Below are positions 4,624 to 61,417 of a stretch of DNA of 64,000 bases, one piece after another. The stretch covers positions 29,537-93,536 of the forward strand of contig JAHJTG010000016.1 in assembly GCA_018829965.1 (NCBI GenBank), written 5' to 3'. The notes beneath the pieces were generated by a model, which was not told the DNA's origin, searched no databases, and was given only the letters and a program-made list of their open reading frames with translations. Source of the DNA: Patescibacteria group bacterium. Lineage in GTDB: Bacteria > Patescibacteriota > Minisyncoccia > Minisyncoccales > Staskawiczbacteraceae. Every line of letters begins with the position of its first letter. The first letter of the stretch is position 1. The position numbers were made by a program, and so were the translations under genes.

Positions 4624-4654
4624 AAGCTTACGGGGGTCGTACCCCCGTAAGCTT
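4624..4654. repeat. GC hairpin AAGCTTACGGGGG-n5-CCCCCGTAAGCTT (copy 2 of 2)
   Basis: aagcttacgggggtcgtacccccgtaagctt, downstream of the prmC stop. Confidence 0.8.
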
Positions 4655-6894: not shown

Positions 6895-7043
6895 AACTGT
6901 TAAGCGAGGCAGTAGTTATAAAAGTGCCCCTCGCAGGCGATTTTGCATGGTTCCGCCTCGTGGCGGAAAAATCGCCGAGAGTGGAGATGACCAAACCTCG
7001 CAGGGGTTTGGATTATCGCCACTTTTATGGCTACTACCGAGCG
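6895..7043 (-). repeat. F1 long-hairpin element, copy b
   Basis: aactgttaagcgagg-[ggcagtagttataaaagtg ... cacttttatggctactacc]-gagcg. Ends 1 nt before the rmuC stop. Confidence 0.85.
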
Positions 7044-7044
7044 T

Positions 7045-8079
7045 CTATTCAATTAGAGACTGTTCAACCTCTTTTATAGTTTTAATATTATTTTCCGTAC
7101 CTGTTATTTTTACCACATCTTTATCTATTTTTGCAAGCTCTTTTGACGCTTTATTGTAAGAACCGACTGTTATATTCAAATGCCCGCCCATTTTCTTCAT
7201 ATATTCGCTGTATGTTCCCAAATGCCTTCCCAGCCTTTCAACTTCTTTTATAACCTCCTTTGCCTGTTCTGATATCTTCTGATTTTTCAATCCTTGCAAA
7301 ACCGTCTGCAAATAAGCAAGAAATGATGTCGGGGAAACAATTATTACTTTCTTTCTGCCAGCGTAATATATCAGATTATTCGTATCTTCGGTTATCGTCC
7401 CCACTTTATTGATAAGCAAATCGTAATATACAGCTTCAGAAGGAATAAACATAAAAGCAAAATCCATTGTGTTTTCTTCTGGTTTTACATATTTTGATGT
7501 CTCTTCAATCCTGGCTTTTAAATCTTGGACAAAAGCATTCTCATATCTCTTTTTGTCTTCTGGATTCCTTGATTCTAGAATGCGGTTATAGTTTTCCAAG
7601 CTGAACTTTGAATCAATCGGAATAATGCGCTTGTCTACAAAAACCACTGCGTCAACTATTGTCCCGTCTTTAAACGAATACTGCATTTGAAAAGAACCGG
7701 GAGGCAAAACATTTTTTAAAACAGTTTCAAGATAATACTCTCCTAAAACTCCTCTTTGTTTGGGATTTTTCAAAATATCCTGAAGGCTCTGCAACTGGTC
7801 GGCAAAACCTACGACCTGACGGTTGGTTTCATCAAGTTTAGTTAGTTTTTCAGTAACATCGCTGATAATTTTAGCGCTTTGTCCGAACTGCACTTGAATA
7901 GTTTTATTTGATTCAGACAACTGGCTTTCCAAAGTTTTCCTGATATCGCTTAATTGCTGTTGAATCATTAAAGAGGCATCGCTTTTTGTTTCAGATTTCT
8001 TCTTAAATAATAAAAAAAACACTCCTGTCAAGCCGAAAAAAATTAAAACCAAAAAGCTGATTATTATTGCTTGTTCCAT
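7045..8079 (-). CDS. rmuC: DNA recombination protein RmuC
   Basis: N-terminal TM, long coiled coil, C-terminal RmuC nuclease-like block (VDAVVFVDKRIIPIDSKF...FMFIPSEAVY). Confidence 0.85.
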   Translation of the reverse strand: MEQAIIISFLVLIFFGLTGVFFLLFKKKSETKSDASLMIQQQLSDIRKTLESQLSESNKTIQVQFGQSAKIISDVTEKLTKLDETNRQVVGFADQLQSLQDILKNPKQRGVLGEYYLETVLKNVLPPGSFQMQYSFKDGTIVDAVVFVDKRIIPIDSKFSLENYNRILESRNPEDKKRYENAFVQDLKARIEETSKYVKPEENTMDFAFMFIPSEAVYYDLLINKVGTITEDTNNLIYYAGRKKVIIVSPTSFLAYLQTVLQGLKNQKISEQAKEVIKEVERLGRHLGTYSEYMKKMGGHLNITVGSYNKASKELAKIDKDVVKITGTENNIKTIKEVEQSLIE

Positions 8080-10407: not shown

Positions 10408-11760
10408 TTAGCGCTTTCTATAATCAAAACGGCTTGATGGCCTACGACCAGACGGCCTACTATTTCTATGTGAAAAATAACTGCCTCTATTAAAACCACT
10501 GGGAGCATTAGATTGTCCCGATTCTATCGAGTATCCTTGATGGTTCCGACTTTGTCGAGAATCCTCGACTTTGTCGGGACTTTGCCATCTGGACTGACTT
10601 GAATGAGCTGGAAGATCGGGTAATCTTGAAATAGGAAGATATAGTCTGGTTAATCTTTCAATTTCTCTAACTTTAGCCCCTTGATCTGGTAAAACAAAAG
10701 AAATAGCTTTACCTGACATACCGGCCCTGCCAGTTCTTCCGATACGATGGACATAGTCTTCTGGATTTTCAGGAAGGTCATAATTAATAACTAATTCAAT
10801 ACCTTTAACATCTATACCGCGTGAAGCAATATCAGTTGCCACAAGCACCCTATATCTACCTATCTTAAATCCCTCTAATGCTTCTTTTCTTTGTCGGAGT
10901 GATTTATTTGAATGTATTTCTGCCGCAGAAACTCCAATATTGCGTAAATCTTCACAAATTCTCCTTGCGTTAAATTTAATTCTTAAAAAGATTAAAACGC
11001 TTCCCTTATATTCTTTAATCAATTTTCTCAATAACGAAGGCTTTTGGTCTTTTCTAACAACAAACAATTCGTGCTCAATATTTTTAGCAGTAGTCCCGGT
11101 TTTAGCTATCTCTACCCTAACAGGAAGCTTCATGTGATTGCTGGCAATTTTTACAATGCCATCTGGCATTGTTGCCGAAAATAACATAGTTTGTCTATCT
11201 TTAGGTAATACTTGTAGTATTTTAGCTATCTGTGGAGCAAAACCCATATCAAACATTCTATCGGCTTCATCTAAAACTAAGACTGTAACATCGCGCAAAT
11301 TAAGAGTTCTCTGTTGAAGATGGTCATTAATCCTTCCTGGAGTACCAATAACAACATTAGGATTATTACGGATCGCTCTTATTTGATTATAAATAGGGGC
11401 TCCACCGATTAACACAACTGTTTTTATGCCAAATCCTCTCCCTATCTTTTCTATAGCCTCACTCACCTGTATAGCTAATTCACGGGTTGGTAATACGATT
11501 AATCCCCTTCCCTTACCAGCTTTTAAAAGCCGCTGGACTAAAGGAATACCAAAAGCTAAGGTCTTACCTGTGCCTGTTTGAGCTATACCAATAATATCTT
11601 TGCCTTCAATAGCTGCAGGAATTGCTTTGTGTTGTATTGAGGTTGGAACTTTAAAATCCATTCTTAAAAGTACATCAAGAATCTTTGGAGCTATCCCAAG
11701 ACCGCCAAAAGTCATTTCTGTTTCGCTTAATATATGTTTTTCTGTTTGTTTGTTTATCAT
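10408..11760 (-). CDS. DEAD-box ATP-dependent RNA helicase with R/S/G-rich tail
   Basis: Q motif, AQTGTGKT, PTRELA, DEAD, SAT, HRIGRTGRAG. The C-terminal tail contains an in-frame GC-rich repeat (10517-10580). Confidence 0.93.
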   Translation of the reverse strand: MINKQTEKHILSETEMTFGGLGIAPKILDVLLRMDFKVPTSIQHKAIPAAIEGKDIIGIAQTGTGKTLAFGIPLVQRLLKAGKGRGLIVLPTRELAIQVSEAIEKIGRGFGIKTVVLIGGAPIYNQIRAIRNNPNVVIGTPGRINDHLQQRTLNLRDVTVLVLDEADRMFDMGFAPQIAKILQVLPKDRQTMLFSATMPDGIVKIASNHMKLPVRVEIAKTGTTAKNIEHELFVVRKDQKPSLLRKLIKEYKGSVLIFLRIKFNARRICEDLRNIGVSAAEIHSNKSLRQRKEALEGFKIGRYRVLVATDIASRGIDVKGIELVINYDLPENPEDYVHRIGRTGRAGMSGKAISFVLPDQGAKVREIERLTRLYLPISRLPDLPAHSSQSRWQSPDKVEDSRQSRNHQGYSIESGQSNAPSGFNRGSYFSHRNSRPSGRRPSSRFDYRKR

Positions 11761-15786: not shown

Positions 15787-16626
15787 TTAAAGTAGATACA
15801 ATTCTTGGTTATATCCGCCGATACCAACAAACTCTGCCTCACCTTTCAAAATCTTTTCGTATGGCTGACACGAAAAACAACCTTGAGATCCACGAGGACA
15901 TTCAAAACGGCCAATCCCCCGAGCCTCTTTAACTTTTCTAGCAATAGTTAAAACTTTTTCCCGCGCGCTAGTAATTTCTGGTAAAGCAACGCTTGAAGGA
16001 GTATCTGCATTGTCTAAATACCAGTAAGCAGCACCAGAAACTTTTCTTTTTTGCAGAGCGTTTAGAAGTAAAATGTAAATTGGCAGTTGAAGGGAATCCT
16101 GCCCTTCTTCGTTCTTTCCAGTTTTAAAATCAATCACCCGAATACTATCGTCTGCCTCAATATATTCTAACCAATCAATCTTCCCGCATAAAATTATATT
16201 ATCTTCCTCTGATAAAAAGAAATTCGGCAACATCTCACTTTCTTCATTTTTCAGTTTTATTGTTTTCTTCAATAAAGGTCCTGGATTTTTTGCGACTCTC
16301 TCTATCATTTGCTTCGCACGCTCTTTTGCATCCGACTCTTCTTTTTCTGCTCTAAATCCGCCAATTTTTCCAGAAACTTTTTTCCAATTTTCTTCAAATG
16401 CTTCCAATAACGATTTTTTAAATCTATCTTCCACCTTATACTTCGTTAAACTCTCTAATGTTTCGTGCACAGCCGAGCCTAATGATAAAGCCGGACTTAC
16501 TAAGTTTATCTTTCTGTTGTCCTTACTTTTATATATATTATGCAAATAATATGCCCGAGGACATTTTAAAAAGTCGTTAATGGACGAATGCGACACCCAT
16601 GTTGAATTGTATTTATCTTTTGCCAT
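15787..16626 (-). CDS. Cas4/AddB-type PD-(D/E)XK nuclease with 4-Cys cluster
   Basis: N-terminal CPRAYYL, nuclease core GKIDWLE...VIDFKTGK...QLPIY, C-terminal CPRGSQGCFSC. Confidence 0.8.
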   Translation of the reverse strand: MAKDKYNSTWVSHSSINDFLKCPRAYYLHNIYKSKDNRKINLVSPALSLGSAVHETLESLTKYKVEDRFKKSLLEAFEENWKKVSGKIGGFRAEKEESDAKERAKQMIERVAKNPGPLLKKTIKLKNEESEMLPNFFLSEEDNIILCGKIDWLEYIEADDSIRVIDFKTGKNEEGQDSLQLPIYILLLNALQKRKVSGAAYWYLDNADTPSSVALPEITSAREKVLTIARKVKEARGIGRFECPRGSQGCFSCQPYEKILKGEAEFVGIGGYNQELYLL

Positions 16627-16750
16627 ATTTATGAGCGAAGAAAGAATGAAAACTGAGGAAGGGAGAAAATAACAAAGTTATTTTCGACGACCGAAACTTT
16701 CATTCTGACTGAGCGATTAAATATATAGGCGATTTATCGCCTCTATAATT
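16627..16750 (-). repeat. F2 start-codon-abutting leader element, copy a
   Basis: Gene-sense strand: TTATAGAG-[GGCGATAAATCGCC]-TATATATTTAATCGCTCAGTCAGAATGAAA...TTTCATTCTTTCTTCGCTCATAAAT-ATG. Fills the whole spacer between the UvrD-like stop and the nuclease ATG. Confidence 0.85.
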
Positions 16751-19747
16751 TTAAGTTTGTCTAAAATCGCAAATATCTCTGAAGTCGCAATACTCGCACT
16801 GCCAGCCCGGAGTTGGCTCAAACTTACTATCTTTTATTGCCTCAATTTCTGCGATTATCTTTTCTTTTCTATCCTGCTTTTCTTTATCTGAGCCTAGAAA
16901 TGATGCTTGGCTATTGTTATCTAGGTAGTAATAGGCTAATTCTTTTGGTTTAATATTTAAAACCTCTTCTGCTGCTATTTGATAGATTAATAACTGGGAT
17001 TTATCGTCAGCTTCTAGCTTTTCTTTCGGTTTACCAGTTTTGTAATCAATAATCTTTACTCCATTTTCAGAATCATCAATCCTATCTATCACTCCGTATA
17101 AATTATATCCCCCTACTTTTAAATTGAAAGGTAGCTCTAATGCCAACTCATTGTTAATTTTTAAAATCTTTGGAGGATTCTTTTTAAAATCTTCGTAAAA
17201 ATCCTTAATTATCCTTTTGCCTAGTTTATAATAATCATCTTTTTGTTTTTTTGATTCGTACCACTCGCCAATCCAATTTCGTTCATAAAGCTTTTCCAAT
17301 ATTTTAAATTCATCCCCTTTCCCACTCTTCTTCCCAGTTATTGGGACGTATGACGTCCCAATAACTTTTTTACTAGGGCCGAATAGAGATTCTTGATTTA
17401 CTTTACTGGCTTCGTTTACATTTTTTAAAAAATTGTAAAGAGTGGCGTGCATTGTTTTACCGAACGAAAACACCGCCTTGCCCCTAATAGGAATCTTTAG
17501 AATAAACCCAAACTTGTACTGCAACGGACATTTTTCAAAGGCAGCCAGTTGGGAGAAAGAAAAATGCTCTGGCAAATACTTATTCTCTAATGTCTTAGGC
17601 TTTCTTATCTCTACCTTATCGGCTAATAAGCCCTTCTTTTCTTTAACTGCATCCCCTTTTGATTCTTCGTATCCCATTTCAATTAAAAATCTGGAAAGCT
17701 TCTTTTTTCTTTGACCTCCGTAATCTTGGGCCGATGTGAAATATAATCCTTTTTTAGCTCTCGTCATTGCCACATAACAAATACGCCTTTCTTCTTGCAA
17801 ATGCACGTCGCCTGTTGGTTTAATATCCTTAATTAATTCATCTGGTAATTCAATCGGTTCTTTTCTTTCTATCACAGGGAAACGCCTATCAACCATGCTT
17901 ACCAGAAACACATACTTAAACTCCAAGCCCTTAGCCGCGTGTATTGTCATTATTTTAACCATATCAGGACCTTGTTCTGGGTCAAATTCAAGTTTTCCTT
18001 CTTCTCCTGATTCAAGTTCTAAAGTAAGCTCCTCCATAAAGTTTTTTAAAGCAGGAGCAATTGCTGACTCCTCAAAACTTTGAACCTTATCGTAAAATTG
18101 GTTTAACAGGTCTAACTTCTCTTTTTCGTCTCGATTAATTAAATACTTTAAGTATCCGGAATCATTCATAAACGCCACTAATATCTCAATAACCGTTTTG
18201 TCTTTAACTAAAATGCTGTGTTTTTTGATTATAGAAAGGATAAAGCTTATCTTTTCTTTAGTTTGGGCGCTTACTCCAGTAATCAGCGGGGCTTCTTGCA
18301 ATGCCTCAAAAAGTGATTTGGTTTTTTTATGACCATATTGAGTAATAGTAGCAATATCCTCATCTGATATTTCCAAAAACGGCAAACTCAAAATCCTATA
18401 AACCGCTGCGCATTCATGGTAGTTATCCAATAATTTAAAGTAAGAGATAATATCTAAAATGACTGGCTTTGAATAAAGTCCTCTTGAAGCTAAAAATTGG
18501 TATGGCATGCCCGCTCTTTCTAAGGCTCTGACAAAGGGAATCGCTGTATCGTTTGCTCTTACTAAAATAGCAAAGTCGCTATAACTTGAATCTTTATCTC
18601 TCTTTAAAATTTCAGCAATCTTTTTTATTGTTTTCCTTACTTCTTCGTCTAAGCTTTTGGCACTAATATGTTCTATCACTCCTTCCCCCTTGTTCTCTGC
18701 AATTAACTTTTTATCAATCTTGTTTACAAACTCCAATCTATCAGGGTCGTTTGCTTTAATAAAAACATACGCTTTGTCTAAAATGTTTTGCGTAGACCTA
18801 TAGTTATTTATTAAAGATATTTGTTTGGCTTTTGTCCCGATTTCATCGAGGATCCTCGACGGCGAAGCCGTCGGGAAAAAATCCTTAGCAAACTGCACAA
18901 TATTATTAAAAGAAGCGCCTCTCCATCTATAAATAGCTTGGTCGTCGTCGGCACAGACAGTTAAATTATTTCCCGGTTCGGCTAATATCTTTATTAACTC
19001 ATACTGGGCGTAGTTTGTGTCTTGGAACTCGTCAACTAAAATATATTTAAACTTTTCCCTATACTTTTTTAAAATCAACGGACGCTTTTTAAATAAAAGC
19101 AAACAATAGTTTATTAAATCACCAAAATCCAATACGTCGTTATCTAAAAGCATTTTTTGATAAATATAGTAGGCATTAGCAACTTCTTTTATTCTTTCTG
19201 TCTCTTGGACTTCCGGCAAATCGTCTAAGCTTGTTTTTAAGCTATCTGCATATTTTAAATAGTCTTCTGGGTAAATACCTTGGTCTTTGCAGTGGGAAAA
19301 ATGATAAATTAGGGATTGTATAAACTTCGTGGGGTTCCCCAATGATTTGTAATAATTCAATTCAAATTTATTTAAGTTTTGACGAGCTAACAGCCACCCG
19401 GCGGTTCCATCTAATATTTTAAAATCGGGAGGCAATCCAATATCTAAAGCATTTTCCTTTAAAACTCTTTCGCAGAAGGCGTGGAATGTAGAAATCCACA
19501 AATCCATATATCCAAAGTCCAAAAGCTGGTCTACTCTTTCTTCCATCTCCCCTGCTGCCTTTTCAGTAAAAGTAACTGCTAAAATCTCCTCTGGCTTTGC
19601 CAAGCCCTTTTCAATTAAATTAACTATTCGCTGAGTAATAACCGTGGTTTTACCAGTTCCCGCCCCAGCCACAATTAAAAGAGGCCCCTTACCATGGACC
19701 ACCGCTTCCTTTTGCTCTTTGTTTAGTTTTTCCAAATTTAACGCCAT
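16751..19747 (-). CDS. UvrD/PcrA-type SF1A helicase fused to a C-terminal Cas4-like Fe-S PD-(D/E)XK nuclease
   Basis: AGAGTGKTT, DEFQDTN, helicase motifs through VAMTRAK. C-terminus has CPLQYKF, IDRIDD...IIDYKTGK...QLLIYQ, CEYCDFRDIC. Start set at MALNLEKL (19747), directly after F2 copy b; the track ORF reads on into the repeat. Confidence 0.88.
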   Translation of the reverse strand: MALNLEKLNKEQKEAVVHGKGPLLIVAGAGTGKTTVITQRIVNLIEKGLAKPEEILAVTFTEKAAGEMEERVDQLLDFGYMDLWISTFHAFCERVLKENALDIGLPPDFKILDGTAGWLLARQNLNKFELNYYKSLGNPTKFIQSLIYHFSHCKDQGIYPEDYLKYADSLKTSLDDLPEVQETERIKEVANAYYIYQKMLLDNDVLDFGDLINYCLLLFKKRPLILKKYREKFKYILVDEFQDTNYAQYELIKILAEPGNNLTVCADDDQAIYRWRGASFNNIVQFAKDFFPTASPSRILDEIGTKAKQISLINNYRSTQNILDKAYVFIKANDPDRLEFVNKIDKKLIAENKGEGVIEHISAKSLDEEVRKTIKKIAEILKRDKDSSYSDFAILVRANDTAIPFVRALERAGMPYQFLASRGLYSKPVILDIISYFKLLDNYHECAAVYRILSLPFLEISDEDIATITQYGHKKTKSLFEALQEAPLITGVSAQTKEKISFILSIIKKHSILVKDKTVIEILVAFMNDSGYLKYLINRDEKEKLDLLNQFYDKVQSFEESAIAPALKNFMEELTLELESGEEGKLEFDPEQGPDMVKIMTIHAAKGLEFKYVFLVSMVDRRFPVIERKEPIELPDELIKDIKPTGDVHLQEERRICYVAMTRAKKGLYFTSAQDYGGQRKKKLSRFLIEMGYEESKGDAVKEKKGLLADKVEIRKPKTLENKYLPEHFSFSQLAAFEKCPLQYKFGFILKIPIRGKAVFSFGKTMHATLYNFLKNVNEASKVNQESLFGPSKKVIGTSYVPITGKKSGKGDEFKILEKLYERNWIGEWYESKKQKDDYYKLGKRIIKDFYEDFKKNPPKILKINNELALELPFNLKVGGYNLYGVIDRIDDSENGVKIIDYKTGKPKEKLEADDKSQLLIYQIAAEEVLNIKPKELAYYYLDNNSQASFLGSDKEKQDRKEKIIAEIEAIKDSKFEPTPGWQCEYCDFRDICDFRQT

Positions 19748-19876
19748 AATTATGAGCGAGGAAGGAATGAAAATTGAGGAAGGAAAAAGTAAAAGTTTAC
19801 TTTTATTTTTGGCAACCGAAAATTTCATTCCGACCGAGCGATTAATTATATAGATAGCGAAGCTATCTCTATAATT
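19748..19876 (-). repeat. F2 leader element, copy b
   Basis: Gene-sense: ATTATAGAG-[ATAGCTTCGCTAT]-CTATATAATTAATCGCTCGGTCGGAATGAAA...TTTCATTCCTTCCTCGCTCATAATT-ATG. Confidence 0.85.
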
Positions 19877-20366: not shown

Positions 20367-20400
20367 GAACATTCTGACATTCTTGAGAATGTCAGAATGT
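20367..20400. repeat. P-palindrome copy 1 (ACATTCTnACATTCT / AGAATGTnAGAATGT)
   Basis: aacattctgacattc-ttga-gaatgtcagaatgtt. Confidence 0.85.
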
Positions 20401-20424
20401 TTTTATATACCTCCAAAATTTTAA

Positions 20425-20706: not shown

Positions 20707-20788
20707 TCTATTTTTAAAAATAGAAACTAAAGTTTATATATTTGCGGCGTTCGGTCGGAAAATAAAAGCAATCTTTTCTTTTCCTCCC

Positions 20789-21181
20789 TCACTTGCAATT
20801 ATTGATGATTGTTTTTAAATAGGGCCAGAAAATAAGAATGCCGATAATTGCCGCGCCAAAAATAACCAAAAATACAAAAGCCGAAAGCAAATCTTTTATT
20901 ATTTTAACGCGCGGGTCATGGCTTGGCTGTAAAAAGTCCAAAAAGCGCTCCATAATGGAATTAATCATTTCTAATCCAAGCACGGAAAAAATCATTACTA
21001 AAAGCACGGCCTTTTCTGTTCTGGTGGTCGGGAAATAAAGCATTGCTCCGACAACTAATAGAGCCGCTGTTGCCATATATTTAAAAGCCGGCTCTTTAAC
21101 AAGAACCGTCCATAATCCTTTCCAAGAATTCTGAAAACTCAAAAAAATATTTTTCCTTCTCTGATTATTATTTTGTTCCAT
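20789..21181 (-). CDS. dgkA: diacylglycerol/undecaprenol kinase (DgkA family)
   Basis: 3-TM small kinase. Contains SFQNSWKGL, EPAFKY, LVLGLEMINSIMERFLD, KIIKDLLSAFV. Confidence 0.8.
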   Translation of the reverse strand: MEQNNNQRRKNIFLSFQNSWKGLWTVLVKEPAFKYMATAALLVVGAMLYFPTTRTEKAVLLVMIFSVLGLEMINSIMERFLDFLQPSHDPRVKIIKDLLSAFVFLVIFGAAIIGILIFWPYLKTIINNCK

Positions 21182-21194
21182 TTTATTATTTTAT

Positions 21195-21228
21195 CATTCC
21201 GACATTCTCAAGAATGCGAGAATGTCGT
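21195..21228. repeat. P-palindrome copy 2 (degenerate)
   Basis: cattccGACATTCTCaagaatgcGAGAATGTCg. Overlaps the ArsR-like stop and lies 15 nt upstream of the dgkA ATG. Confidence 0.7.
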
Positions 21229-21501: not shown

Positions 21502-21535
21502 ATTTTACCATAACATTCTCACATTCTCGAGAATG
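21502..21535. repeat. P-palindrome copy 3 (perfect 34 bp)
   Basis: aacattctcacattctcgagaatgtgagaatgtt. Lies 7 nt upstream of the ArsR-like ATG. Confidence 0.95.
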
Positions 21536-21592
21536 TGAGAATGTTTATTTACTCTTTGAATTATGTTTCCAAAATTTTAAGCTTTTCCATAA

Positions 21593-22315
21593 TTATTTCT
21601 TTGAATTTTTGCCGTTAATAACAATTAGGGCGTGAAAATCCTGATATAAACGAAAATCTTTTCTCAAGTTTTCCTCAAATAATTTTTGCAGAAACTGATA
21701 ATCCGTCTTGTCTGCCAAATTACGCTCTTTAACTAATCTTCTGGTATATTCATCTATAACAAAAACTGGTTTATCTAAAGCGTAAAGTAAAATGCTATCA
21801 GCTGTTTCCGGTCCAATGCCTTTTAATTTTAGCAGTTCTTCCCTTAATTCTTTGAGTTCTGTTTTTTTCATTCTTTCCAAACTGCCATCCCGATTTAATC
21901 GAGGATCTCCCGATGAAATCGAGGATCCTCGACTCTGTCGGGACTCGACAGAGTCGGGATAATTCTCCACGATAAATTTGGATAAATTAAATAGATATTG
22001 GGCCTTGGTTTTGTAAAATCCCGAGGGTTTAATTAAAGGCACTAATCTTTTTGCGCCCAATTGATAAAGAGCCTTTAGCGAATTTATCTTTGCTTTCTTT
22101 AAATTATTTAAAGCCAATTCTACGTTTTTCCAATTTGTTCTCTGAGTTAAAATCGCCCCGATTGCTATTTCCTCTCTTTCTCGTCTAATTTTAGACCTTT
22201 TACACCAAAGTTTCCATTGTCCCTTAGGCGTTCCGTATTTCTTTTTTAACTCTTTATATAATTTCTCAAATTGTTTAACGTCGGATGTTAAACATTCACG
22301 TCGGGTGTTAAACAT
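21593..22315 (-). CDS. endonuclease III-related HhH-GPD DNA glycosylase with in-frame GC-rich insertion
   Basis: ILTQRTNWKNV and the HhH motif LKGIGPETADSILLYALDKPVFVIDEYTRR. About 23 extra residues (SRQSRGSSISSGDPRLNRDGS) are encoded by the repeat at 21889-21958. Confidence 0.8.
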   Translation of the reverse strand: MFNTRRECLTSDVKQFEKLYKELKKKYGTPKGQWKLWCKRSKIRREREEIAIGAILTQRTNWKNVELALNNLKKAKINSLKALYQLGAKRLVPLIKPSGFYKTKAQYLFNLSKFIVENYPDSVESRQSRGSSISSGDPRLNRDGSLERMKKTELKELREELLKLKGIGPETADSILLYALDKPVFVIDEYTRRLVKERNLADKTDYQFLQKLFEENLRKDFRLYQDFHALIVINGKNSKK

Positions 22316-22324: not shown

Positions 22325-22356
22325 ACATTCTCACATTCTCGAGAATGTGAGAATGA
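22325..22356. repeat. P-palindrome copy 4
   Basis: acattctcacattctcgagaatgtgagaatga. Lies 10 nt upstream of the nth-like ATG. Confidence 0.9.
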
Positions 22357-22486
22357 TTTTATTTTAATTCTCTTTTAAATGCTTTGGATAAAATGGATTT
22401 AGTCTAATTTTTTTGTTGGCCAGAGCATAAATTAATGGTGGCTGACCCCATTTTTTCTCAAGTCTAGTTCAAACTTGTGCGTTATG

Positions 22487-22646: not shown

Positions 22647-23279
22647 CTATTTCCACTTCATTTTCAACGCCTCGGATATTTCCACGAGGTTTAAACCTAG
22701 AATAGTGCCAACGCAACTTGTTGCCAAGGCGGAATAAACATGCTCTTTTCCGACAGAATCCTGCCAGATAGGTATGCTTTTCCCGTTATGATTTATTTTA
22801 AAATTCGCACCTTCGTTATCTGTGTTGACATCACTTGCCATAAAATCAGCTCCCTGTTCAAAGCCGAAGGTAATATCTTTTAAATTAGCCGTGTCGTTTA
22901 TTTTCACAGCTGATTTATCATCAAAATTCAAAACTAAAAATCCGTAAGAAGGGATTAATTGAGCTAATTCGGATATTTGTTTTATTTCTTTTAAAATCTC
23001 TACCATATGAGTTACAACCAAAATCGGCAATGGAGACAATCTTACCAGCTCAGCCATCTTTTTAAAGATTTTTTCACTTTCTAAATTTGTTTCTATAATA
23101 AAAACGTTTTTTATTAAAATATCAAAAAGATTAGGAGTTTTCTTAATCAACTTCTTAACTTTAAAATTGCTTTCCAAAATATGGGAAATAGATTCAACAG
23201 CCAAACTCTTGCCTTTGCCAGACACTATAATAACTTTTATCTTTTTAAGACGGAAAATAGTTTTGAATATGAAATTCAT
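22647..23279 (-). CDS. short Mur-ligase-like protein (central domain only, degenerate P-loop)
   Basis: 210 aa in the position where murE/murF follows ftsI. IIVSGKGKS stands in place of GxNGKTT. VLNFDD and GKEHVYSALA resemble MurF central-domain motifs. No C-terminal domain. Confidence 0.4.
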   Translation of the reverse strand: MNFIFKTIFRLKKIKVIIVSGKGKSLAVESISHILESNFKVKKLIKKTPNLFDILIKNVFIIETNLESEKIFKKMAELVRLSPLPILVVTHMVEILKEIKQISELAQLIPSYGFLVLNFDDKSAVKINDTANLKDITFGFEQGADFMASDVNTDNEGANFKINHNGKSIPIWQDSVGKEHVYSALATSCVGTILGLNLVEISEALKMKWK

Positions 23280-23372
23280 AATTATGAGTGAGGGAGGAAT
23301 ATATGAAAAATTTTCATATATTCCGACTGAACGATTAATTATATAAATTACTTTTAGTAATTTCTATATAAT
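23280..23372 (-). repeat. F2 leader element, copy c
   Basis: Gene-sense: ATTATATAG-[AAATTACTAAAAGTAATTT]-ATATAATTAATCGTTCAGTCGGAATATATGAAAA...TTTTCATATATTCCTCCCTCACTCATAATT-ATG. Starts at the ftsI stop. Confidence 0.85.
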
Positions 23373-25433: not shown

Positions 25434-25568
25434 AACTTTGAAAACTCTAAGTTCTAATTTCTAAATCCTAAATAATTTCAAAATTCAAATATCTAAATTA
25501 TAAACACTTTTGAACTTTGGGTTTTGAAATTGTAATTTATTTAGAGTTTAGGATTTGGGATTTAGAAT
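25434..25568. repeat. F4 inverted heptamer-array element, copy a
   Basis: (TCTAAnT)n ... taaataatttcaaaa / ttttgaaattgtaatttattta ... (AGGATTT/GGGATTT)n. Fills the rsmH-ftsL spacer and abuts the ftsL-ORF ATG. Confidence 0.8.
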
Positions 25569-26522
25569 TTATGTTTTAACTATTGCTCTTAATTTTGCTG
25601 ACCTTGAACGATTATTTGATTTAATTTCCTCTAATGAGGCTGTAATCGGCTTTTTTGTTAATATTTTTATTACGCCGTCTTTTGATTGGTCTCTAAAAAA
25701 GTTTTTAACGATTCTGTCTTCCAGAGAATGAAAGGAGATAACCACTAATCTTCCTCCGGGTTCTAACACCTCTATTGCTTGAGGTAAAACATTCTTCAAA
25801 TTCTCTAACTCCTGATTAACTGCGATTCTTAATGCTTGGAATGTTCTTGTTGCAAAATGGATTCTTCCTCTTTCATATCCTCTCGGTACTGCTTTTTTAA
25901 TAACTTCTATCAAGTCAGTTGTTGTTTCAAGTTTTTTTACCCTTCGAGCTTCTACGATCGCTTTAGCGATTCTTCTTGATAATCTTTCCTCCCCGTATTC
26001 TCTCAAGATTGCTTCTATGTCGTTCTCTCTCCAGCTGTTTACTATCTGCCTTGCAGTCAGCTCGTTATCCTTTAAATAACGCATATCAAGCGGTTCATTT
26101 TTCATAAAGGCGAATCCCCTGCCTGAATCGTCTAGGTGCCAACTAGACATTCCTAGATCCAGTAAAATCCCATTTACCCCGTTAGAGGTTTGTCCCCCTT
26201 GTTCATCTTGTTCCCCTTCCGAGCCTCCTTGACCTCTAACTGGGCGAGCTGACCCGAAGTTATTATCTCGGATAATTTCTTTTAAATTTGTATAAGAACC
26301 AACAACAAGAATGATTCGATTCTTGTAATTTTCAATTTCCAATTTACAATTTTCAATTTGTTGACTATCTAAATCGATTCCTAAAAGTTTTCCATTCGGA
26401 CCGCTTCTCTCTAATATCGCAATCGCATGACCGCCTTCGCCTATTGTGCAATCAATAAAGTTTTCATTGCTCTTTGGATTTAAATATTCAAGGACTTCTT
26501 TTGGCAGAACGGGTATATGCAT
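25569..26522 (-). CDS. rsmH: 16S rRNA m4C1402 methyltransferase RsmH with in-frame F3-like insertion
   Basis: MHIPVL, DCTIGEGGH, ILLDLGMSS, RGFAFMKNEPLDMR, SFHSLEDRIVK. About 25 extra residues come from 26177-26244. Confidence 0.92.
   Translation of the reverse strand: MHIPVLPKEVLEYLNPKSNENFIDCTIGEGGHAIAILERSGPNGKLLGIDLDSQQIENCKLEIENYKNRIILVVGSYTNLKEIIRDNNFGSARPVRGQGGSEGEQDEQGGQTSNGVNGILLDLGMSSWHLDDSGRGFAFMKNEPLDMRYLKDNELTARQIVNSWRENDIEAILREYGEERLSRRIAKAIVEARRVKKLETTTDLIEVIKKAVPRGYERGRIHFATRTFQALRIAVNQELENLKNVLPQAIEVLEPGGRLVVISFHSLEDRIVKNFFRDQSKDGVIKILTKKPITASLEEIKSNNRSRSAKLRAIVKT
26177..26244. mobile_element. F3-related short inverted-repeat element inside rsmH
   Basis: Left end ccccgttagaggtttg versus F3b ctccgttagaagtttgc. 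Right end acctctaactggg versus F3 acttctaacgggg. GC-rich interior, translated in frame. Confidence 0.65.
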
Positions 26523-26981: not shown

Positions 26982-27201
26982 AACTGTTAAGTGAGGCGAC
27001 GAGTTTAAAAGTAAATTTCGCAGGCTCAATCTTTCAGTTAAGCGAGGCAATAATGTATGCGGGTGCACTTCGGAGCCAAGCTGTAAATGAGGACTCGGAA
27101 TAATATTGCCTACGTGCTTGGCGAGAAATAGGCGCGGCGGAGGAATAAATCTATTTTGGCTTAAGCCGACGCCGTGCTCCCGCATATATTATTGCCGAGT
27201 G
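26982..27201 (-). repeat. F1 composite: truncated arm of copy-a type plus a full copy nearly identical to copy e
   Basis: aactgttaagtgaggcgacgagtttaaaagtaaatttcgcagg (compare 5589-5630), then agttaagcgagg-[ggcaataatgtatgcggg ... cccgcatatattattgcc]-gagtg. About 100 nt match 44305-44425. Confidence 0.85.
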
Positions 27202-27202
27202 T

Positions 27203-27352
27203 TATCCACAGGTTAATTAGGTTCTCCCACACTTATCCACTATTATCCACTACATATCCTTTATACCCCACTTTATAGGATTGGGTCAACACTTATAAAC
27301 CCAAGCTCATTTCCCTAGGGAAAACACTTATTTCTCCACAGGAAATCCACTA
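27203..27352 (-). promoter_or_regulatory. array of seven GTGG(A/G) boxes in helical phase upstream of mraZ (candidate MraZ operator; also DnaA-box-like)
   Basis: CCAC cores on the plus strand at 27206, 27227, 27237, 27247, 27268, 27336 and 27347 (spacings 21, 10, 10, 21, -, 11). Includes TTATCCACA, TTATCCACT x2 and TTCTCCACA. Confidence 0.55.
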
Positions 27353-34390: not shown

Positions 34391-34420
34391 AAAAAAAACC
34401 GCTCGCAAGCGGTTTTTTCT
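34391..34420. terminator. bidirectional rho-independent terminator
   Basis: aaaaaaaaCCGCTcgcaAGCGGtttttt. Confidence 0.75.
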
Positions 34421-34427
34421 TTTTCTA

Positions 34428-34566
34428 AACTGTTAAGCGAGGAAAGTAATTTCTTTTACGATTCGGAGCGAATTGGATTGGTGTCGCCTTAGGCGACCAA
34501 TTCGCGAGTAGTAGCAAATTTTTCGCTGGAAAAAATTCGCGTGTAAAAGAAATTACTTTCCGAGCG
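34428..34566 (-). repeat. F1 long-hairpin element, copy d
   Basis: aactgttaagcgagg-[ggaaagtaatttcttttac ... gtaaaagaaattactttcc]-gagcg. Perfect 19-bp outer stem. Abuts the rplL stop. Confidence 0.88.
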
Positions 34567-35625: not shown

Positions 35626-35760
35626 AATAGTTTTGCTTCACAAAAGAAACTCTAAATTCTAAGCTCTAAACTCTAAACTCGTCGTGTTTGTAATTTTTAA
35701 TTTAGAATTTTGAATTTATTTAGGATTTAGAATTTCGGATTTAGAATTTTTACAAAATAA
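35626..35760. repeat. F4 inverted heptamer-array element, copy b
   Basis: aaactctaaattctaagctctaaactctaaactcg ... tttagaattttgaatttatttaggatttagaatttcggatttagaattt. Starts at the rplJ ATG. Confidence 0.8.
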
Positions 35761-37060: not shown

Positions 37061-37696
37061 CTATTTGCTTATTAGAGGAACGAAAACAAAGCCCGGGTAT
37101 TCTATTTCCTCGTATTTATTATCTGTTTTTTTTATAATCGTTTTAATCGAATTCCCTACTGGAGCTACTATTTTACCACCGATTTTCAGCTGTTTTTTCC
37201 AGGCAAGAGGAATTTTTGCGCAGGATGCAGACACTAATATTTTATCAAACCCTTCGACAAGCTCAGGGTCGGTAGCAAGACCAGAATACCTTTTTGAACC
37301 GTCCCCTAAAACATACTTAACAATTCCTTTTTCTATAAAGCTATACTTTGCCACATTCTGCTCGCCAAATTCTTTTAACTCCGGGATTAATTCAATAGAA
37401 ACTATTTTGCCTGTCTCCCCTACTATTTGAGCTAAAAGAGCTGTTGTCCAGCCAGAGCCGGAACCAATGTCTAAAATCTTCTCGCCTATTTTCGGCTGTA
37501 ATTGCTCTAACATAAAAGCAACCACTGCAGGTTGCGATATGGTTTGATTAAAACCAATGGGAAGCGCTTCATTAAGCTCGGCAAGTTTTTTCATTCCTTC
37601 TGGCAAAAAATCCTGCCTCTTTATTTTTATAAAGGCGTCTTTTATAGAATCGGTTTTCAACCAACCTTCTTGAATTAAAGAATCTATAAGATTCAT
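37061..37696 (-). CDS. pcm: protein-L-isoaspartate O-methyltransferase
   Basis: QTISQPAVVAFMLE, LDIGSGSGWTTALLA, GGKIVAPVG. Confidence 0.9.
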   Translation of the reverse strand: MNLIDSLIQEGWLKTDSIKDAFIKIKRQDFLPEGMKKLAELNEALPIGFNQTISQPAVVAFMLEQLQPKIGEKILDIGSGSGWTTALLAQIVGETGKIVSIELIPELKEFGEQNVAKYSFIEKGIVKYVLGDGSKRYSGLATDPELVEGFDKILVSASCAKIPLAWKKQLKIGGKIVAPVGNSIKTIIKKTDNKYEEIEYPGFVFVPLISK

Positions 37697-37822
37697 AATA
37701 AACTCTAAATTCTAATATCTAAATTCTAAATAATTTCAAAACTAAAATATTTAAACTCGAAAAGTGTTTTGAATTTTGTGATTTAGAATTTGGGATTTAT
37801 TTAGGATTTAGTGCTTAGGATT
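37697..37822. repeat. F4 inverted heptamer-array element, copy c
   Basis: aaactctaaattctaatatctaaattctaaataatttcaaaa ... tttgaattttgtgatttagaatttgggatttatttaggatttag. Abuts the pcm ATG. Confidence 0.8.
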
Positions 37823-38200
37823 TTACAGTAACTTTCCTTGTCTTAATTTTTTAGTGATAGTTTCGGCTTTTTCTTTGCCTTCTTTGGTGATAGTAAATTC
37901 AGTTTTAGGATCTCCTTTAATAAGTTTCTGATTTCTCAATGCTCTTAATGGTCTGTCTAATTTCCTCGCATCCGGCCATTGAGGGTAGCTCTTAAAGCCA
38001 AAAACATCTGGGAATAAAATAAAGGATTGATTGACTAATTTCTCAAACTTACAATCTTGCTTGTTTGATAATATTGAATAAATACTAAAAAGAATCAAAT
38101 CACCTATCGACATCTTGGGAAAAGCTGTTTTTGTTTTATTTTTTTTATCTTTACTCATAATAGATGAACTTATTTTATTTTTCCCAAACAATATGTCCAT
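37823..38200 (-). CDS. hypothetical protein (first gene downstream of the R-M pair; start uncertain)
   Basis: 125-aa ORF overlapping the HNH gene by 26 nt. Internal Mets at residues 15 and 30 would remove the overlap. Confidence 0.45.
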   Translation of the reverse strand: MDILFGKNKISSSIMSKDKKNKTKTAFPKMSIGDLILFSIYSILSNKQDCKFEKLVNQSFILFPDVFGFKSYPQWPDARKLDRPLRALRNQKLIKGDPKTEFTITKEGKEKAETITKKLRQGKLL

Positions 38201-38759
38201 TTATATTGTGCTTTTCATAAGTCTCCAATACATCTACACAAAATTTAACCAATTCTTGGTTCTTTTCTCTTTTTGCTAATTCATATAAACGAATGAACAT
38301 TTTCTTACCTGTCTCGGTTTGCTTTAAATTCTTTTTAATAAAATTGTGTTGAGAGCACAAAGTTTGACCATTTTCTATTGTTGCTTCACCGCCTAAATCT
38401 TTGGGCTTTATATGATCAATGTGCAAATCCATGCCATCTTTTTTTCCCCTTCCGCAAATAACACACTTATAGCCATCTCTTTTTAAAATAGCTTCTTTTT
38501 GTAAAACACTAAAATCTTCCAATTTTCTTTTATGTGCTTTATCAGGATCATATTTATAAATTCCTTTAGAAATTTTAATCAAAAATCCGCTTTGAGACAA
38601 TTTACGAATAGCTCTATCTGGATCACGAAAGACATTTCCAGTTCTCTTTTTATAAGTCGTAACAACCCAATCTACAACTTCGGGGTGTTTTATATCTCTA
38701 TTTGGATTTTTCTTAAAAAACTCAATGATTAAGTCTTGTTGAATTACATTATTTTTCAT
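38175..38759 (-). CDS. HNH-family endonuclease (candidate type II restriction enzyme)
   Basis: CVICGRGKK...HIDHIKPKDLGGEATIENGQTLCSQHN (Cys pair plus H-N-H). Directly downstream of a DNA methyltransferase. Confidence 0.75.
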   Translation of the reverse strand: MKNNVIQQDLIIEFFKKNPNRDIKHPEVVDWVVTTYKKRTGNVFRDPDRAIRKLSQSGFLIKISKGIYKYDPDKAHKRKLEDFSVLQKEAILKRDGYKCVICGRGKKDGMDLHIDHIKPKDLGGEATIENGQTLCSQHNFIKKNLKQTETGKKMFIRLYELAKREKNQELVKFCVDVLETYEKHNINGHIVWEK

Positions 38760-38785
38760 AATTTTATTTAATTTATTAAGTTTGA

Positions 38786-41026: not shown

Positions 41027-41188
41027 TTATCTTTTTCCTTCCTTGTGCAGAGTATGTTTTCTGCATCTCTTGCAGAATTTTTTCATTTCTAATTTCTTTT
41101 CAGCTGCTTTCTTTGATTTTTTTGTAAAGTAATTTATCTCCTTACAAACAGTACATAGAATCTTTGAAGCTTGTTTTTTCTTTGCCAT
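41027..41188 (-). CDS. rpmG: 50S ribosomal protein L33 (below the ORF-track length cutoff)
   Basis: Own translation: MAKKKQASKILCTVCKEINYFTKKSKKAAEKKLEMKKFCKRCRKHTLHKEGKR* (53 aa; CxxC...CxxC zinc ribbon, KHTLHKE). Confidence 0.9.
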   Translation of the reverse strand: MAKKKQASKILCTVCKEINYFTKKSKKAAEKKLEMKKFCKRCRKHTLHKEGKR

Positions 41189-41274: not shown

Positions 41275-41288
41275 AAATAATTTTAATC

Positions 41289-41547: not shown

Positions 41548-41557
<10 letters not shown>

Positions 41558-61386: not shown

Positions 61387-61417
61387 AAAATAGAATAATA
61401 ATATATAAAAATACCCT

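Follow-up and report, generated by a model that had tools for sequence, protein, structure and literature searches.

Staskawiczbacteria-like Parcubacteria carry a lineage-specific interspersed repeat, the F1 element: a two-hairpin DNA module of about 100 bases which fills the gap before many unrelated genes and ends exactly at the downstream start codon, the ATG itself being part of the repeat. The host lineage comprises tiny groundwater bacteria without the usual ribosome-binding signal, and F1 apparently adds an undescribed family to the few known bacterial interspersed hairpin repeats. Five F1 copies, one F3 unit and four to five F2 copies lie in the 64,000-nucleotide stretch analysed here (the window; Table 1), and 79 unique F1 copies were found in metagenomes. 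The original prediction drew attention to conserved mismatches on one strand of these hairpins and read them as a possible target of a transposase; the observation is largely real and the interpretation is partly supported, in that the purine-purine mismatches on one strand are real, yet no tie to a known transposase was found here. The best explanation at present, to which we assign a probability of about 0.45, is a MITE-like portable gene-start cassette that combines a promoter with a 5' hairpin leader and acts in the sense transcript.

Architecture of F1 and its place before genes

Read outwards from the gene, F1 consists of the start codon, an 8-nt spacer (TCATAATT), a long imperfect hairpin (H1, 57-113 nt, with size classes that include 64, 68 and 72 nt), TATATAAT and, outermost, the small hairpin H2. 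The module, 90-170 nt long in all, occupies the entire gap between two genes. The stop codon of the upstream gene is often the TAG within TATAGA at the H2 edge, and its distance from TATATAAT is 14-40 nt in most co-directional cases. The imperfect inverted termini of the module are TATAATTAATCGCTCGG and CCTCGCTCATAATTAT. In the F1b copy, H1 rises from an AT base of 7 bp through a 3x3 loop (T.T, G.A, A.G), GC, a GA/AG loop, GG:CC and an AA/GA loop to a 9-bp stem and a nested second ladder with its hairpin (about 19776-19822); F1a likewise carries a nested inner unit within H1, and its H2 is GGCGATAAATCGCC.

Table 1. Positions of the repeat copies, their parts and the neighbouring genes in the window.
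Feature	Position	Strand	Remarks
F1b, whole copy	19745-19874	-	F1 module before the helicase-nuclease gene
F1b start codon (CAT on +)	19745-19747	-	within the repeat; CATAATTATG, a 10-nt palindrome
UvrD/AddA-like helicase-nuclease gene	16751-19747	-	starts at F1b
F1b hairpin H1	19746-19851	-	folds; covariance model R1 match 19745-19852, 72.7 bits
F1b left terminus GCGAGG	19756-19761	+	purine strand; sense CCTCGC, -14 to -9 from ATG
F1b right terminus CCGAGC	19834-19839	+	with next GA repeats left-arm hexamer GAGCGA
F1b TATATAAT, -10-like box	19845-19852	-	gene-sense strand, 4 nt upstream of first ladder base
F1b small hairpin H2	19847-19874	-	TATAGA-stem-loop-stem-TATATA; loop GCGAAGC on +, GCTTCGC on -
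F1a	16624-16750	-	between addA-like stop (16751-16753) and PD-(D/E)XK nuclease start (16626)
F1c, short form	41186-41275	-	before ribosomal protein L33 (41027-41188); termini at 41197/41231
F1d, short form	23277-23372	-	before Mur-ligase-like gene (22647-23279)
F1e, inverted orientation	48696-48782	+	before + strand glycosyltransferase (48780-49484)
F3-type unit, reversed	20735-20803	+	base TATAATTGC/GCAATTATA; purine strand is gene-sense strand of both neighbours
F2 copy	6895-7045	-	between ribosomal protein L21 and the stop of gene 7045-8079; GCGAGG/CCGAGC (6904/7037) closes a branched hairpin, then TTAACAGTT
F2 copy	34425-34566	-	directly after L7/L12 stop codon; termini at 34437/34560; followed by bidirectional terminator at 34395-34420
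F2 copy	27038-27203	-	upstream of mraZ; core 94% identical to 44 kb F2 copy
F2 copy	44294-44424	-	between RNase III and ribosomal protein S16
RNase III gene	44428-45117		
NYN nuclease gene	40257-40832		

The metagenome search pattern fixed CAT and TATATAAT as anchors, leaving the ladder and stem unconstrained in the 73 unique short F1 copies fetched in this way. A real ORF starts at the CAT of each of the 79 copies, always at the same distance. Although that pattern demanded the CAT, a retrieval of genome sequences that relied on the right end alone also found it in 16 of 17 hits; TATATAAT is retained in F1e and in copies found by the covariance model alone. Rfam searches of the window with gathering thresholds and E-values returned four tRNAs and no match for the element, the best sub-threshold hits reaching 23 bits (cut-off 50) and 15.5 bits (cut-off 45). 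No further F1 copies came from a regular-expression search of the first 17 loci, no covariance-model match from 73 kb of loci encoding PD-(D/E)XK (AddB-like) nuclease homologues, and no result from an exact-product look-up of the window helicase. A viral origin or phage use of F1 was set aside, there being no IMG/VR matches. So was a tie to the adjacent reverse TRANSCRIPTASE at L024 and L075, judged coincidental as one orthologous locus among 79 copies; this reverse TRANSCRIPTASE resembles a DGR-type RT (LGNLxSQ motif).

The genes that follow F1 are mutually unrelated housekeeping genes and include those for L2, L22, S3, S14, L17, L33, both the alpha and beta subunits of ATP synthase, DnaA, DnaN, RecA, RuvA, AlaRS, ThyA and AddA, among others, and modules at least 90% identical stand before unrelated genes. 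Consecutive ribosomal-protein cistrons are among them: at one locus (L004) hairpin modules precede S10, L3, L2, S19, L22, S3, L16 and S17. Modules thus placed inside operons are found between addA/addB-like genes, in the gap upstream of atpD (presumably atpG-atpD), at dnaA-dnaN and in the S10 cluster. F1a replaces 25 nt of the orthologous sequence at L103, the codons MTEQKI included, so that the start codon comes from the repeat.

In the host, SD-like motifs precede 3 of 62 genes against a background of 12%, and the 16S tail on a related F1-bearing contig, L031 (GGATCATTTTTTTA), lacks CCUCC. Loss of the anti-SD in a subgroup of Parcubacteria has already been published, and the role of the conserved SD-helix-contacting h26 in that subgroup is an open question (PMC9297842). 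Since only about 8% of genes carry F1, it cannot be a general initiation signal. An SD function for its GGAGG was rejected, the motif being on the wrong strand in a host without SD use and with a 16S tail devoid of CCUCC. The idea that the purine strand encodes a short ORF, with GGAGG ahead of an ATG or GTG, was likewise rejected, as no more than about 55% of copies have RTG and the frame shifts among the 64-, 68- and 72-nt classes; no peptide or conserved frame was found on the purine strand of F1 copies.

The H1 ladder and its strand asymmetry

H1 contains a ladder with a period of 4 nt, two G:C pairs followed by two purine-purine pairs (GCGAGG/CCGAGC), whose strands are TGAGCGAGGGAGG and CCGACCGAGCGAT. 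The ladder is two-fold symmetric, the hexamer GAGCGA (TCGCTC on the sense strand) being present on both arms, and this 'CGAG block' is common to F1 and the larger F2 and F3 hairpins, in all of which it is a probable recognition feature for a factor. The shared GCGAGG...CCGAGC termini of the original prediction are found in F1b, F1c and the F2 copies at 6904/7037 and 34437/34560, and variants of them bound F1a, F1d, F1e and the F2 copies at 27 kb and 44 kb. The folds also bear out the two conserved plus-strand loops described for the paired arms (5'-GA/3'-AG, then AA/GA) and add a third that had gone unmentioned, the T.T, G.A and A.G of a 3x3 loop beside the AT-rich base. The GA/AG clamp flanked by G/C occurs 71 times in the collected DNA, a set enriched in F1, compared with 0-9 occurrences for other tandem mismatches.

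Across the 73 copies the H1 mismatches are near-invariant and the flanking pairs covary. Successive loop positions read G.A in 53, A.C in 14 and A.A in 4 copies; A.G in 71; G.A in 39 and A.A in 30; and A.G in 70. Between the loops a T-A pair in 23 copies is exchanged for C-G in 22 (Fisher p=6e-8), with further exchanges of G-C (59) for A-T (6) and of A-T (35) for G-C (26). In a pairing test on 30 H1 copies 93.6% of positions were paired, two-sided changes were seen at 13 of 23 pairs and none of 500 shuffles matched the observed value; compensatory changes maintain the H1 helix. A kink-turn or box C/D-like motif, which has tandem sheared G.A pairs beside a 3-nt bulge on one strand, was discarded because the loops are all symmetric (3x3 or 2x2) and without a bulge.

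The strand asymmetry itself holds: the conserved non-Watson-Crick positions are all purine-purine on the strand antisense to the gene, and sense H1 RNA presents tandem U.C/C.U loops together with A.C mismatches. Sporadic single mismatches in H1 follow the same pattern, 28 being purine-purine and 5 pyrimidine-pyrimidine (p=7e-5). Purine-strand H1 RNA, whose z-scores are -5 to -8, gains 3-9 kcal/mol in folding over the sense strand; for DNA the gain is 0.3-2.8 kcal/mol. This asymmetry contradicts the apparent direction in which F1 is used.

A proposed gene-start cassette and the processing alternative

As a gene-start cassette, F1 would use TATATAAT as a -10 box with transcription beginning at the foot of H1, such that the mRNA would open with a 5'-terminal stem-loop whose weak lower ladder (-9 to -18) would lie at the usual place of the SD helix. 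The ribosome would initiate without SD pairing because the lineage has lost the anti-SD, while H2 may end or stabilise the upstream transcript, and the family would spread and turn over in the manner of MITEs. Three situations argue for a promoter inside the module. At L100 it sits after a classical terminator; at L024 and L075 it constitutes the whole divergent intergenic region of about 95 nt; and at L004 a unit of H2 and TATATAAT without H1 stands 14 nt from the L2 start, the orthologous site at L009 having H1. Because L100 has a separate terminator, the idea that H2 alone terminates the upstream gene was rejected. The inner sequence of H2 varies, while its flanks are conserved, as is a single G.A mismatch (read on the gene-sense strand); 318 of its 380 stem cells are Watson-Crick.

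Against the cassette, a sigma-70 promoter scan gave no -35 match and did not flag the module; a classical sigma-70 promoter with a -35 box was thus undetected in the scan and a -10 box alone is arguable. Both the conserved mismatches and some of the wobble pairs are more favourable on the antisense strand, and the sense RNA is predicted to fold less well by the 3-9 kcal/mol given above.

With regard to MITE-like behaviour, F1 is multi-copy and non-coding, has terminal inverted repeats, can be nested or reversed, and is present or absent at orthologous sites (L100 versus L061/L076, at 94% protein identity; the window versus L103, at 87%; L009 versus L004; L016 versus L047; L064 versus L010). 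However, three comparisons of filled with empty sites show 7-25 nt replaced, with no clean insertion and no common target, and no target-site duplication was found at these three sites. The AATTAT/ATAATT flanks are palindromic and do not form identical direct repeats in F1a or F1c.

H1 might instead be a processing site for an RNase III-type endoribonuclease in a polycistronic sense RNA, cleavage at its foot freeing the downstream cistron with a very short leader. We consider this unlikely, although it would suit an organism relying on leaderless or short-leader initiation, and -10-like boxes 6-9 nt from start codons elsewhere in the host suggest short leaders. The modules inside operons are in keeping with it, as are the RNase III gene of the window and the two-fold symmetry of the ladder, which with the same hexamer on both arms suits a dimeric enzyme. 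The AU of the start codon forms part of the AT base of the helix, where one pair has undergone a compensatory change from A-T to T-A (Fisher p=1e-4), although the four T-A copies may derive from a single ancestral change. The tandem pyrimidine mismatches of the sense strand, however, weaken the double-stranded RNA that RNase III needs, and some modules lie after a terminator or in a divergent gap, where no read-through from upstream is expected.

Orientation, wobble pairs and readings centred on the purine strand

The orientation of the repeat is tied to gene direction, as originally stated: all five F1 copies in the window follow the downstream gene, as do about 95% of F1/F3 copies and 6 of 6 scorable F2 copies. 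The four reversed exceptions are the F3-type unit of Table 1 and three units in related loci; eight nested units all have the same orientation (p=0.008). The proposed check of orientation against replication direction came out for the gene and not the replication strand, since F1e flips with its gene where the GC skew only falls to about zero, without a change of sign. Orientation by gene places the purine strand on the presumptive leading-strand template and not on the strand exposed as single-stranded DNA.

This weighs on the proposal that H1 is a single-stranded DNA hairpin whose purine strand is recognised by an HUH/Y1 enzyme, either as a REP/REPIN with its RAYT or as a derivative of IS200/IS605, the association with gene starts being secondary. 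We regard it as improbable. In its favour, stable DNA hairpins built on CGAG-type ladders, with their G:C and sheared G:A pairs, have been shown in vitro (PMC10085684), and the purine strand of F1 folds better also as DNA; the mismatches are conserved while neighbouring pairs covary, the otherwise unrelated hairpins of F1, F2 and F3 are closed by the same clamp, and the presence/absence, nesting and reversal of F1 agree with it. The commonest H2 loop reads GCGAAGC on the purine strand, the mini-hairpin DNA motif (PMC13037366). Like REP, BIME and REPIN sequences, F1 is an interspersed imperfect palindrome with strand-specific conserved bases at the hairpin foot; for both, reading as a single strand is presumed and transcription is plausible. 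REPs, however, are palindromes of 20-40 bp with an unpaired GTAG or CGTC tag; most lie beyond the end of a gene, where the neighbouring ORFs run in one direction or converge, some are found inside genes, and GTAG REPs flank a RAYT gene (PMC3733652). In size, tag and position F1 departs from this: the far longer H1 has TGA/GAT at its foot and neither GTAG nor CGTC in its consensus, and F1, although between unidirectional ORFs, is anchored to the downstream start codon and also occupies divergent gaps. Elements derived from IS200/IS605 have subterminal hairpins at both ends and insert 3' of a fixed tetra- or pentanucleotide without duplication; F1 has two different hairpins, H1 and H2, in place of a matched left and right pair, and in the three comparisons of filled with empty sites 7-25 nt are replaced. 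The absence of an HUH/Y1 transposase gene noted for the window was confirmed in the 48 ORFs scanned, and the precomputed Pfam annotations for six related loci (L001-L002, L103-L106) contain no Y1/HUH domain or RAYT. The HUH/Y1 reading of the mismatches is thus unsupported; should the asymmetry reflect a single-stranded DNA step, it would point to a yet undescribed mobilising enzyme in these organisms with genomes of about 1 Mb.

A cis-antisense small RNA, the other possibility raised originally, would start at the CATAAT box overlapping the start codon, adopt the purine-strand H1 fold and end at H2. The greater stability of the purine-strand RNA speaks for it, as do the terminator-like scores of H2 on the plus strand in F1a and F1b and the CATAATTATG palindrome, which offers a -10-like hexamer in both directions. 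The claim that every imperfect stem position is G.T on the antisense strand survives as an overall lean towards the purine strand but is not universal, some columns running the opposite way. In the window, G.T positions occur only in F1b (1) and F1d (1). Over the 73 copies 37 stem cells are G.T and 18 A.C on the purine strand (p=0.014), an excess to which a single column contributes 13:0, leaving 24:18 (p=0.44); the 68-nt class alone gives 13 versus 3 for the purine strand, whereas columns off4 and off5 lean to the gene-sense strand (5 and 14 cells, off5 at 14:0). Wobble pairs in terminator hairpins favour the functional strand to a similar degree (25:13). Mutation bias was rejected as the source of the excess, as H2 stems in the same DNA lean to the sense strand (20:11), which also counts against an antisense RNA. 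The usual C-to-T bias of the sense or leading strand predicts the direction opposite to the observed excess. An antisense RNA is moreover hard to reconcile with a position ahead of genes that are essential and highly expressed, and of one ribosomal-protein cistron after another in the S10 cluster; for its -35 region it would have to use coding sequence of unrelated genes, and its strand lacks a peptide or conserved frame. On balance it is quite unlikely.

A similarly faint prospect is that, in Parcubacteria that have lost the anti-SD, the foot of H1 is a built-in substitute for the SD:anti-SD helix, in a cassette copied from gene to gene with the purine-strand CGAG-block hairpin recognised during copying. 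Here the CCUCC-like tract of the mRNA itself (-9 to -18) would pair with an upstream GGxCGG tract. The resulting short helix, 8 nt ahead of the AUG, would occupy the cleft of the ribosome in which the SD helix usually sits (the h26 contact), and promoter, helix and AUG would travel together.

The consecutive G:C and sheared G:A pairs of the F1 ladder recur in the CGAG-block hairpins of the AUTS2 promoter, a human promoter repeat whose thermal stability was determined with DNA oligonucleotides in vitro (PMC10085684). The AUTS2 hairpins thus indicate a form that the F1 purine strand can take and are silent on the cell and on DNA or RNA. The Correia repeat-enclosed elements (NEMIS) of Neisseria are multi-copy intergenic sequences of about 100-150 bp with inverted termini and a long hairpin, occurring in long and short forms beside genes with which they are co-transcribed and to which they can supply promoter elements, and varying in presence between strains; their ends are near-perfect 26-bp inverted repeats with a TA duplication. 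F1 shares the short length, copy number, intergenic and gene-adjacent position, inverted termini, long hairpin, long and short forms and presence/absence, but differs in its periodic 2+2 ladder of G:C and purine-purine pairs, its fixed orientation and the start codon supplied at its end, with no detectable duplication and no sequence similarity. Hairpins that set mRNA stability or processing are known from ompA-type 5'-terminal stem-loops and from the intercistronic RNase III sites of T7, the latter with conserved internal loops; both act with an SD sequence and neither is a multi-copy mobile repeat. F1 resembles them in lying at the 5' end of a message or between cistrons, but stops 8 nt short of the AUG, and its host lacks SD:anti-SD pairing. 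For the question of how the start codon is found without an anti-SD, F1 offers a concrete, testable object, set apart from other bacterial interspersed hairpin repeats by its ladder of G:C and sheared-type purine pairs, its repeat-borne start codon and a strand asymmetry that runs against the apparent direction of use.

Anatomy and conservation of F1

The F1 module, an interspersed repeat in which a start codon and an 8-nt spacer adjoin a long imperfect hairpin (H1), a -10-like box and a small hairpin (H2), occurs in five copies in the window. In the copy F1b the plus strand reads CAT (the gene start codon), AATTAT, GA-GC-GA-GG-AA-GG, a 9-bp AT-rich stem, a loop holding a second nested ladder and hairpin, CC-GA-CC-GA-GC-GA, TTAATTATATA and finally H2 as TATATAG-ATAGC-GAA-GCTAT-CTCTATAA. 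The architecture is identical on folding either strand: a 7-bp AT base carries a 3x3 loop, then two 2x2 loops follow, each preceded by 2 bp, and the long stem comes last. The termini GCGAGG (19756-19761) and CCGAGC (19834-19839) and the two purine-purine loops are as the original prediction described them, and the 3x3 loop (T.T, G.A, A.G) is a third that bears purine-purine pairs; termini and 3x3 loop together therefore place the hexamer GAGCGA on both arms. The H1 ladder has a 4-nt period, two G:C pairs alternating with two purine.purine pairs, a motif named the 'CGAG block' in DNA (PMC10085684).

Searched with the right-end sequence, a collection with a single genome for each species yielded 17 loci, in MAGs of Candidatus Staskawiczbacteria and further Patescibacteria. 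A metagenome scan anchored only on the outer 12 and 14 nt, leaving ladder and stem free, gave 83 loci, mostly metagenome fragments from differing organisms, and from these 79 unique copies, 73 of the short form. Across these 73 the mismatch positions are near-invariant (G.A 53, A.C 14, A.A 4; A.G 71; G.A 39, A.A 30; A.G 70) and the pairs between the loops covary (T-A 23 versus C-G 22, Fisher p=6e-8; elsewhere G-C 59, A-T 6 and A-T 35, G-C 26), cell counts that overstate independent events, the copies being related. In a gap-free alignment of 30 copies of 68 nt, standard pairs fill 93.6% of cells and in 13 of 23 pairs both partners vary; none of 500 shuffles reached the observed pairing values, and sliding the partner columns lowered pairing to 38-50%. 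Given this covariation, the near-invariant mismatches and both controls, both the H1 helix and the non-canonical positions conserved in it are real and under selection.

Repeats and associated features in the window
Feature	Position	Context
F1a	16624-16750	F1 copy
F1b	19745-19874	F1 copy, gene on minus strand; abuts the start of a UvrD/AddA-like helicase-nuclease gene, with a short intergenic stretch on its other side
F1d	23277-23372	F1 copy
F1c	41186-41275	F1 copy
F1e	48696-48782	F1 copy, inverted orientation
F2, larger branched hairpins	6895-7045, 27038-27203, 34425-34566, 44294-44424	GCGAGG/CCGAGC clamp; purine strand antisense to genes
Reversed hairpin unit, same superfamily	20735-20803	Base TATAATTGC/GCAATTATA; purine strand is sense strand of both flanking genes
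Perfect 31-34-nt palindrome ACATTCTCACATTCTCGAGAATGTGAGAATGT	20369-20402, 21194-21227, 21513-21546, 22325-22358	Precedes each of four small genes in a row (DUF3175, diacylglycerol kinase, MarR-like, HhH-GPD glycosylase); possible operator of the MarR-like regulator
Palindromic family TTACGAATTACGAATTCGTAATTCG	45122-45187, 45624-45689	Precedes RNase III and NusB
Palindromic family TCCGTGAAAATCACGCTATAGCGTGATTTTCACGGA	61411-61452, 62035-62076	Upstream of genes; 42-nt pair, 100% complementary
Arrays of 8-nt units, TTTAGGAT/TTTAGAAT type	25436-25575, 35641-35750, 37694-37830, 42756-42820, 61054-61258	Mirrored about a centre; intergenic, upstream of genes including ribosomal protein L10
GTTCCGACCTTGTCGAGAATGCTCGACTTTGTCGG, TCGAG-centred palindromes	10515-10577, 18834-18868, 21907-21941, 60788-60847, 61166-61200	Intergenic and within coding sequence (18834 inside helicase gene)
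HNH endonuclease adjoining N6/N4 DNA methylase	38175-39607	Likely restriction-modification pair
196-aa ORF, GLGIGLYWGEGN motif (LAGLIDADG-like)	41548-42138	Between tRNA-Tyr and L33; no Pfam match at 1e-6

Gene starts, turnover and the host

The CAT of every F1 copy opens a genuine ORF; it is a required element of the metagenome search pattern, and is also present in 16 of the 17 genome matches fetched by right end only, while copies found solely by covariance model retain a start codon within 0-21 nt. The genes downstream encode housekeeping proteins with no relation to one another (L2, L22, S3, S14, L17, L33, ATP synthase alpha and beta, DnaA, DnaN, RecA, RuvA, AlaRS, ThyA, AddA-like helicase, PD-(D/E)XK nuclease, glycosyltransferases). 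At the related locus L103 the PD-(D/E)XK nuclease orthologue (87% identical) starts MTEQKIAKDKY, 7 nt past the addA stop; F1a takes the place of those 25 nt (gap and start) and the window protein starts MAKDKY (16567-16626 versus L103:10001-10060). Since F1a replaces the start region of the orthologue, the ATG is part of the repeat. The codons for TEQKI, the five that follow the initiator ATG, were thereby replaced, giving the protein a new, shorter N-terminus. Upstream, the preceding gene mostly has its stop codon 14-40 nt from TATATAAT, and in at least eight cases that stop is the TAG within the conserved H2 TATAGA; with a start codon at one end and a stop at the other, the module fills the entire intergenic gap.

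F1 shows presence and absence at orthologous sites between close relatives, and a covariance-model search found none in 73 kb of loci encoding homologues of the window PD-(D/E)XK (AddB-like) nuclease. Copies at least 90% identical over the whole module precede unrelated genes, and H2 is identical in F1a and F1c. A second unit is nested in the loop of eight long forms, always in the same orientation (p=0.008); reversed units number four (one each in the window, L022, L096 and L061), the window unit being an exception to the orientation rule, and in the sister family F3 the TATAATTGC/GCAATTATA base is perfect. Three empty-versus-filled comparisons revealed replacement of 7-25 nt, not clean insertion, and no target-site duplication.

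Several sites argue for action in the sense direction and for a promoter within F1. At L100 the module follows the classical terminator of an upstream greA-like gene, and in L061 and L076, 94%-identical relatives, just 13 nt separate that terminator from the ATG. A reverse-transcriptase gene, divergently oriented, begins inside H2 in L024 and L075, where the ~95-nt module is the whole divergent intergenic region. The L2 gene of L004 has H2 and TATATAAT 14 nt from its ATG without H1, and at the orthologous L009 site H1 is inserted between the TATATAAT box and the ATG. Hairpin modules (F1 or sister families) precede S10, L3, L2, S19, L22, S3, L16 and S17 in the L004 ribosomal-protein cluster. 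Finally, one F2 copy lies directly 3' of the L7/L12 stop codon and ahead of a strong terminator, and must from this position belong to the sense transcript.

The L004 cluster (L004:1-8000, minus strand) runs tuf-S10-L3-L4-L23-L2-S19-L22-S3-L16-L29-S17, nearly all gaps holding a structured module that ends at or near the ATG: F1, F3-like, H2-only and one 175-nt F2-like hairpin, besides a GC-rich family, CCCCGCCCTCTA..TAGAGGGCGGGG then ATATTATTCACTTCGTTCATAAT, 0-8 nt ahead of the ATG. The reverse transcriptase is a stand-alone RVT_1 protein (L024:917-1909, minus strand; L075:183-1145, plus strand) diverging from the F1-preceded gene, and its LGNLxSQ motif suggests a diversity-generating retroelement.

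The host does not use Shine-Dalgarno pairing. GGAG, GAGG or AGGA occurs at -20 to -4 in 3 of 62 window genes versus 12% in random sequence; A-rich tracts precede window genes. The F1-bearing contig L031 (F1 at L031:2098-2192) carries a complete 16S rRNA (L031:3182-4647, Rfam model 1-1533) whose tail (4634-4647) is GGATCATTTTTTTA where GGATCACCTCCTTA is expected, a U run standing in place of the anti-SD CCUCC, in agreement with the anti-SD loss published for a uL1-less Parcubacteria subgroup (PMC9297842).

Strand asymmetry in F1 and F2

The earlier claim that every imperfect stem position is G.T on the antisense (purine) strand fails with more copies. In the window F1b and F1d have one G.T each and F1a, F1c and F1e none; across the 73 copies the canonical stem cells of the purine strand hold 37 G.T versus 18 A.C (p=0.014), 13 of the 37 coming from one column (A-T 51, G.T 13, G-C 5), without which the ratio is 24:18 (p=0.44). 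Columns off4 (5 cells) and off5 (14 cells) favour the gene-sense strand, all transition-type cells pooled give 40:37, and H2 stem wobbles lean toward the sense strand (20:11). The inner-stem ratio is 29:8 under arm alignment, and 13:3 for copies of the 68-nt class taken by themselves; for comparison, hairpins resembling terminators in this DNA reach 25:13 for the T-tail-bearing strand. From these column counts and this comparison, the wobble excess on the purine strand is moderate and position-dependent, about the strength seen in functional RNA hairpins, and not decisive. Replication direction was taken from GC skew alone.

The asymmetry in the kind of mismatch is robust. On the antisense strand every conserved H1 loop is purine.purine, single mismatches that occur sporadically are purine.purine in 28 cases versus pyrimidine.pyrimidine in 5 (p=7e-5), and folding makes the purine strand of H1 stabler by 3-9 kcal/mol as RNA and 0.3-2.8 kcal/mol as DNA.

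F2 shares this lean and, as predicted, the asymmetric termini: its clamp is that of F1, and the collected DNA contains the G/C-flanked GA/AG clamp 71 times, versus 0-9 for other tandem mismatches. Of the four F2 copies in the window, three fold better on the purine strand, by 9-16 kcal/mol, and one folds equally well on either strand. Minimum-energy folds place 16 G.U pairs on the purine strand versus 7, and this strand runs antisense to the genes on both sides in six of seven copies checked (at L077 the flanking ORFs are on opposite strands). Copies resembling F2 are present in other MAGs.

A proposed sense-strand cassette and its relatives

We tentatively favour a reading, at slightly below even odds (about 0.45), in which F1 is a MITE-like, mobile gene-start cassette working in the sense transcript. 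TATATAAT would serve as the -10 box, transcription would begin at the H1 foot, giving an mRNA with a 5'-terminal stem-loop as its leader, the AUG 8 nt past the stem-loop would be read without SD pairing, and H2 would end or protect the upstream message. The weak point is the asymmetry: the sense RNA has tandem U.C/C.U loops, against stable G.A/A.G pairs in the antisense.

The stabler purine strand would suit H1 as a hairpin of single-stranded DNA that an HUH-type enzyme reads, as the original prediction proposed; no RAYT gene was found among 48 window ORFs and the Pfam lists of six related loci, from incomplete genomes, and we regard this reading as improbable. Equally doubtful is H1 as an RNase III-type processing site freeing near-leaderless cistrons, which would share the sense-strand setting, and with it the unfavourable loops. 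A cis-antisense RNA, also proposed there, would use the better-folding strand; it seems the least probable, by a small margin.

F1 matches no Rfam family and contains no kink-turn bulge, and literature searches turned up no account of it. It does not fit the REP/RAYT system in size, tag or location. By function its closest counterparts are Correia elements, REP/REPIN elements, 5'-terminal stabiliser hairpins and T7 intercistronic RNase III sites, and we rate F1 among the interspersed hairpin repeats that shape gene expression, where its CGAG-block ladder, its repeat-carried start codon and its host without an anti-SD are unusual.
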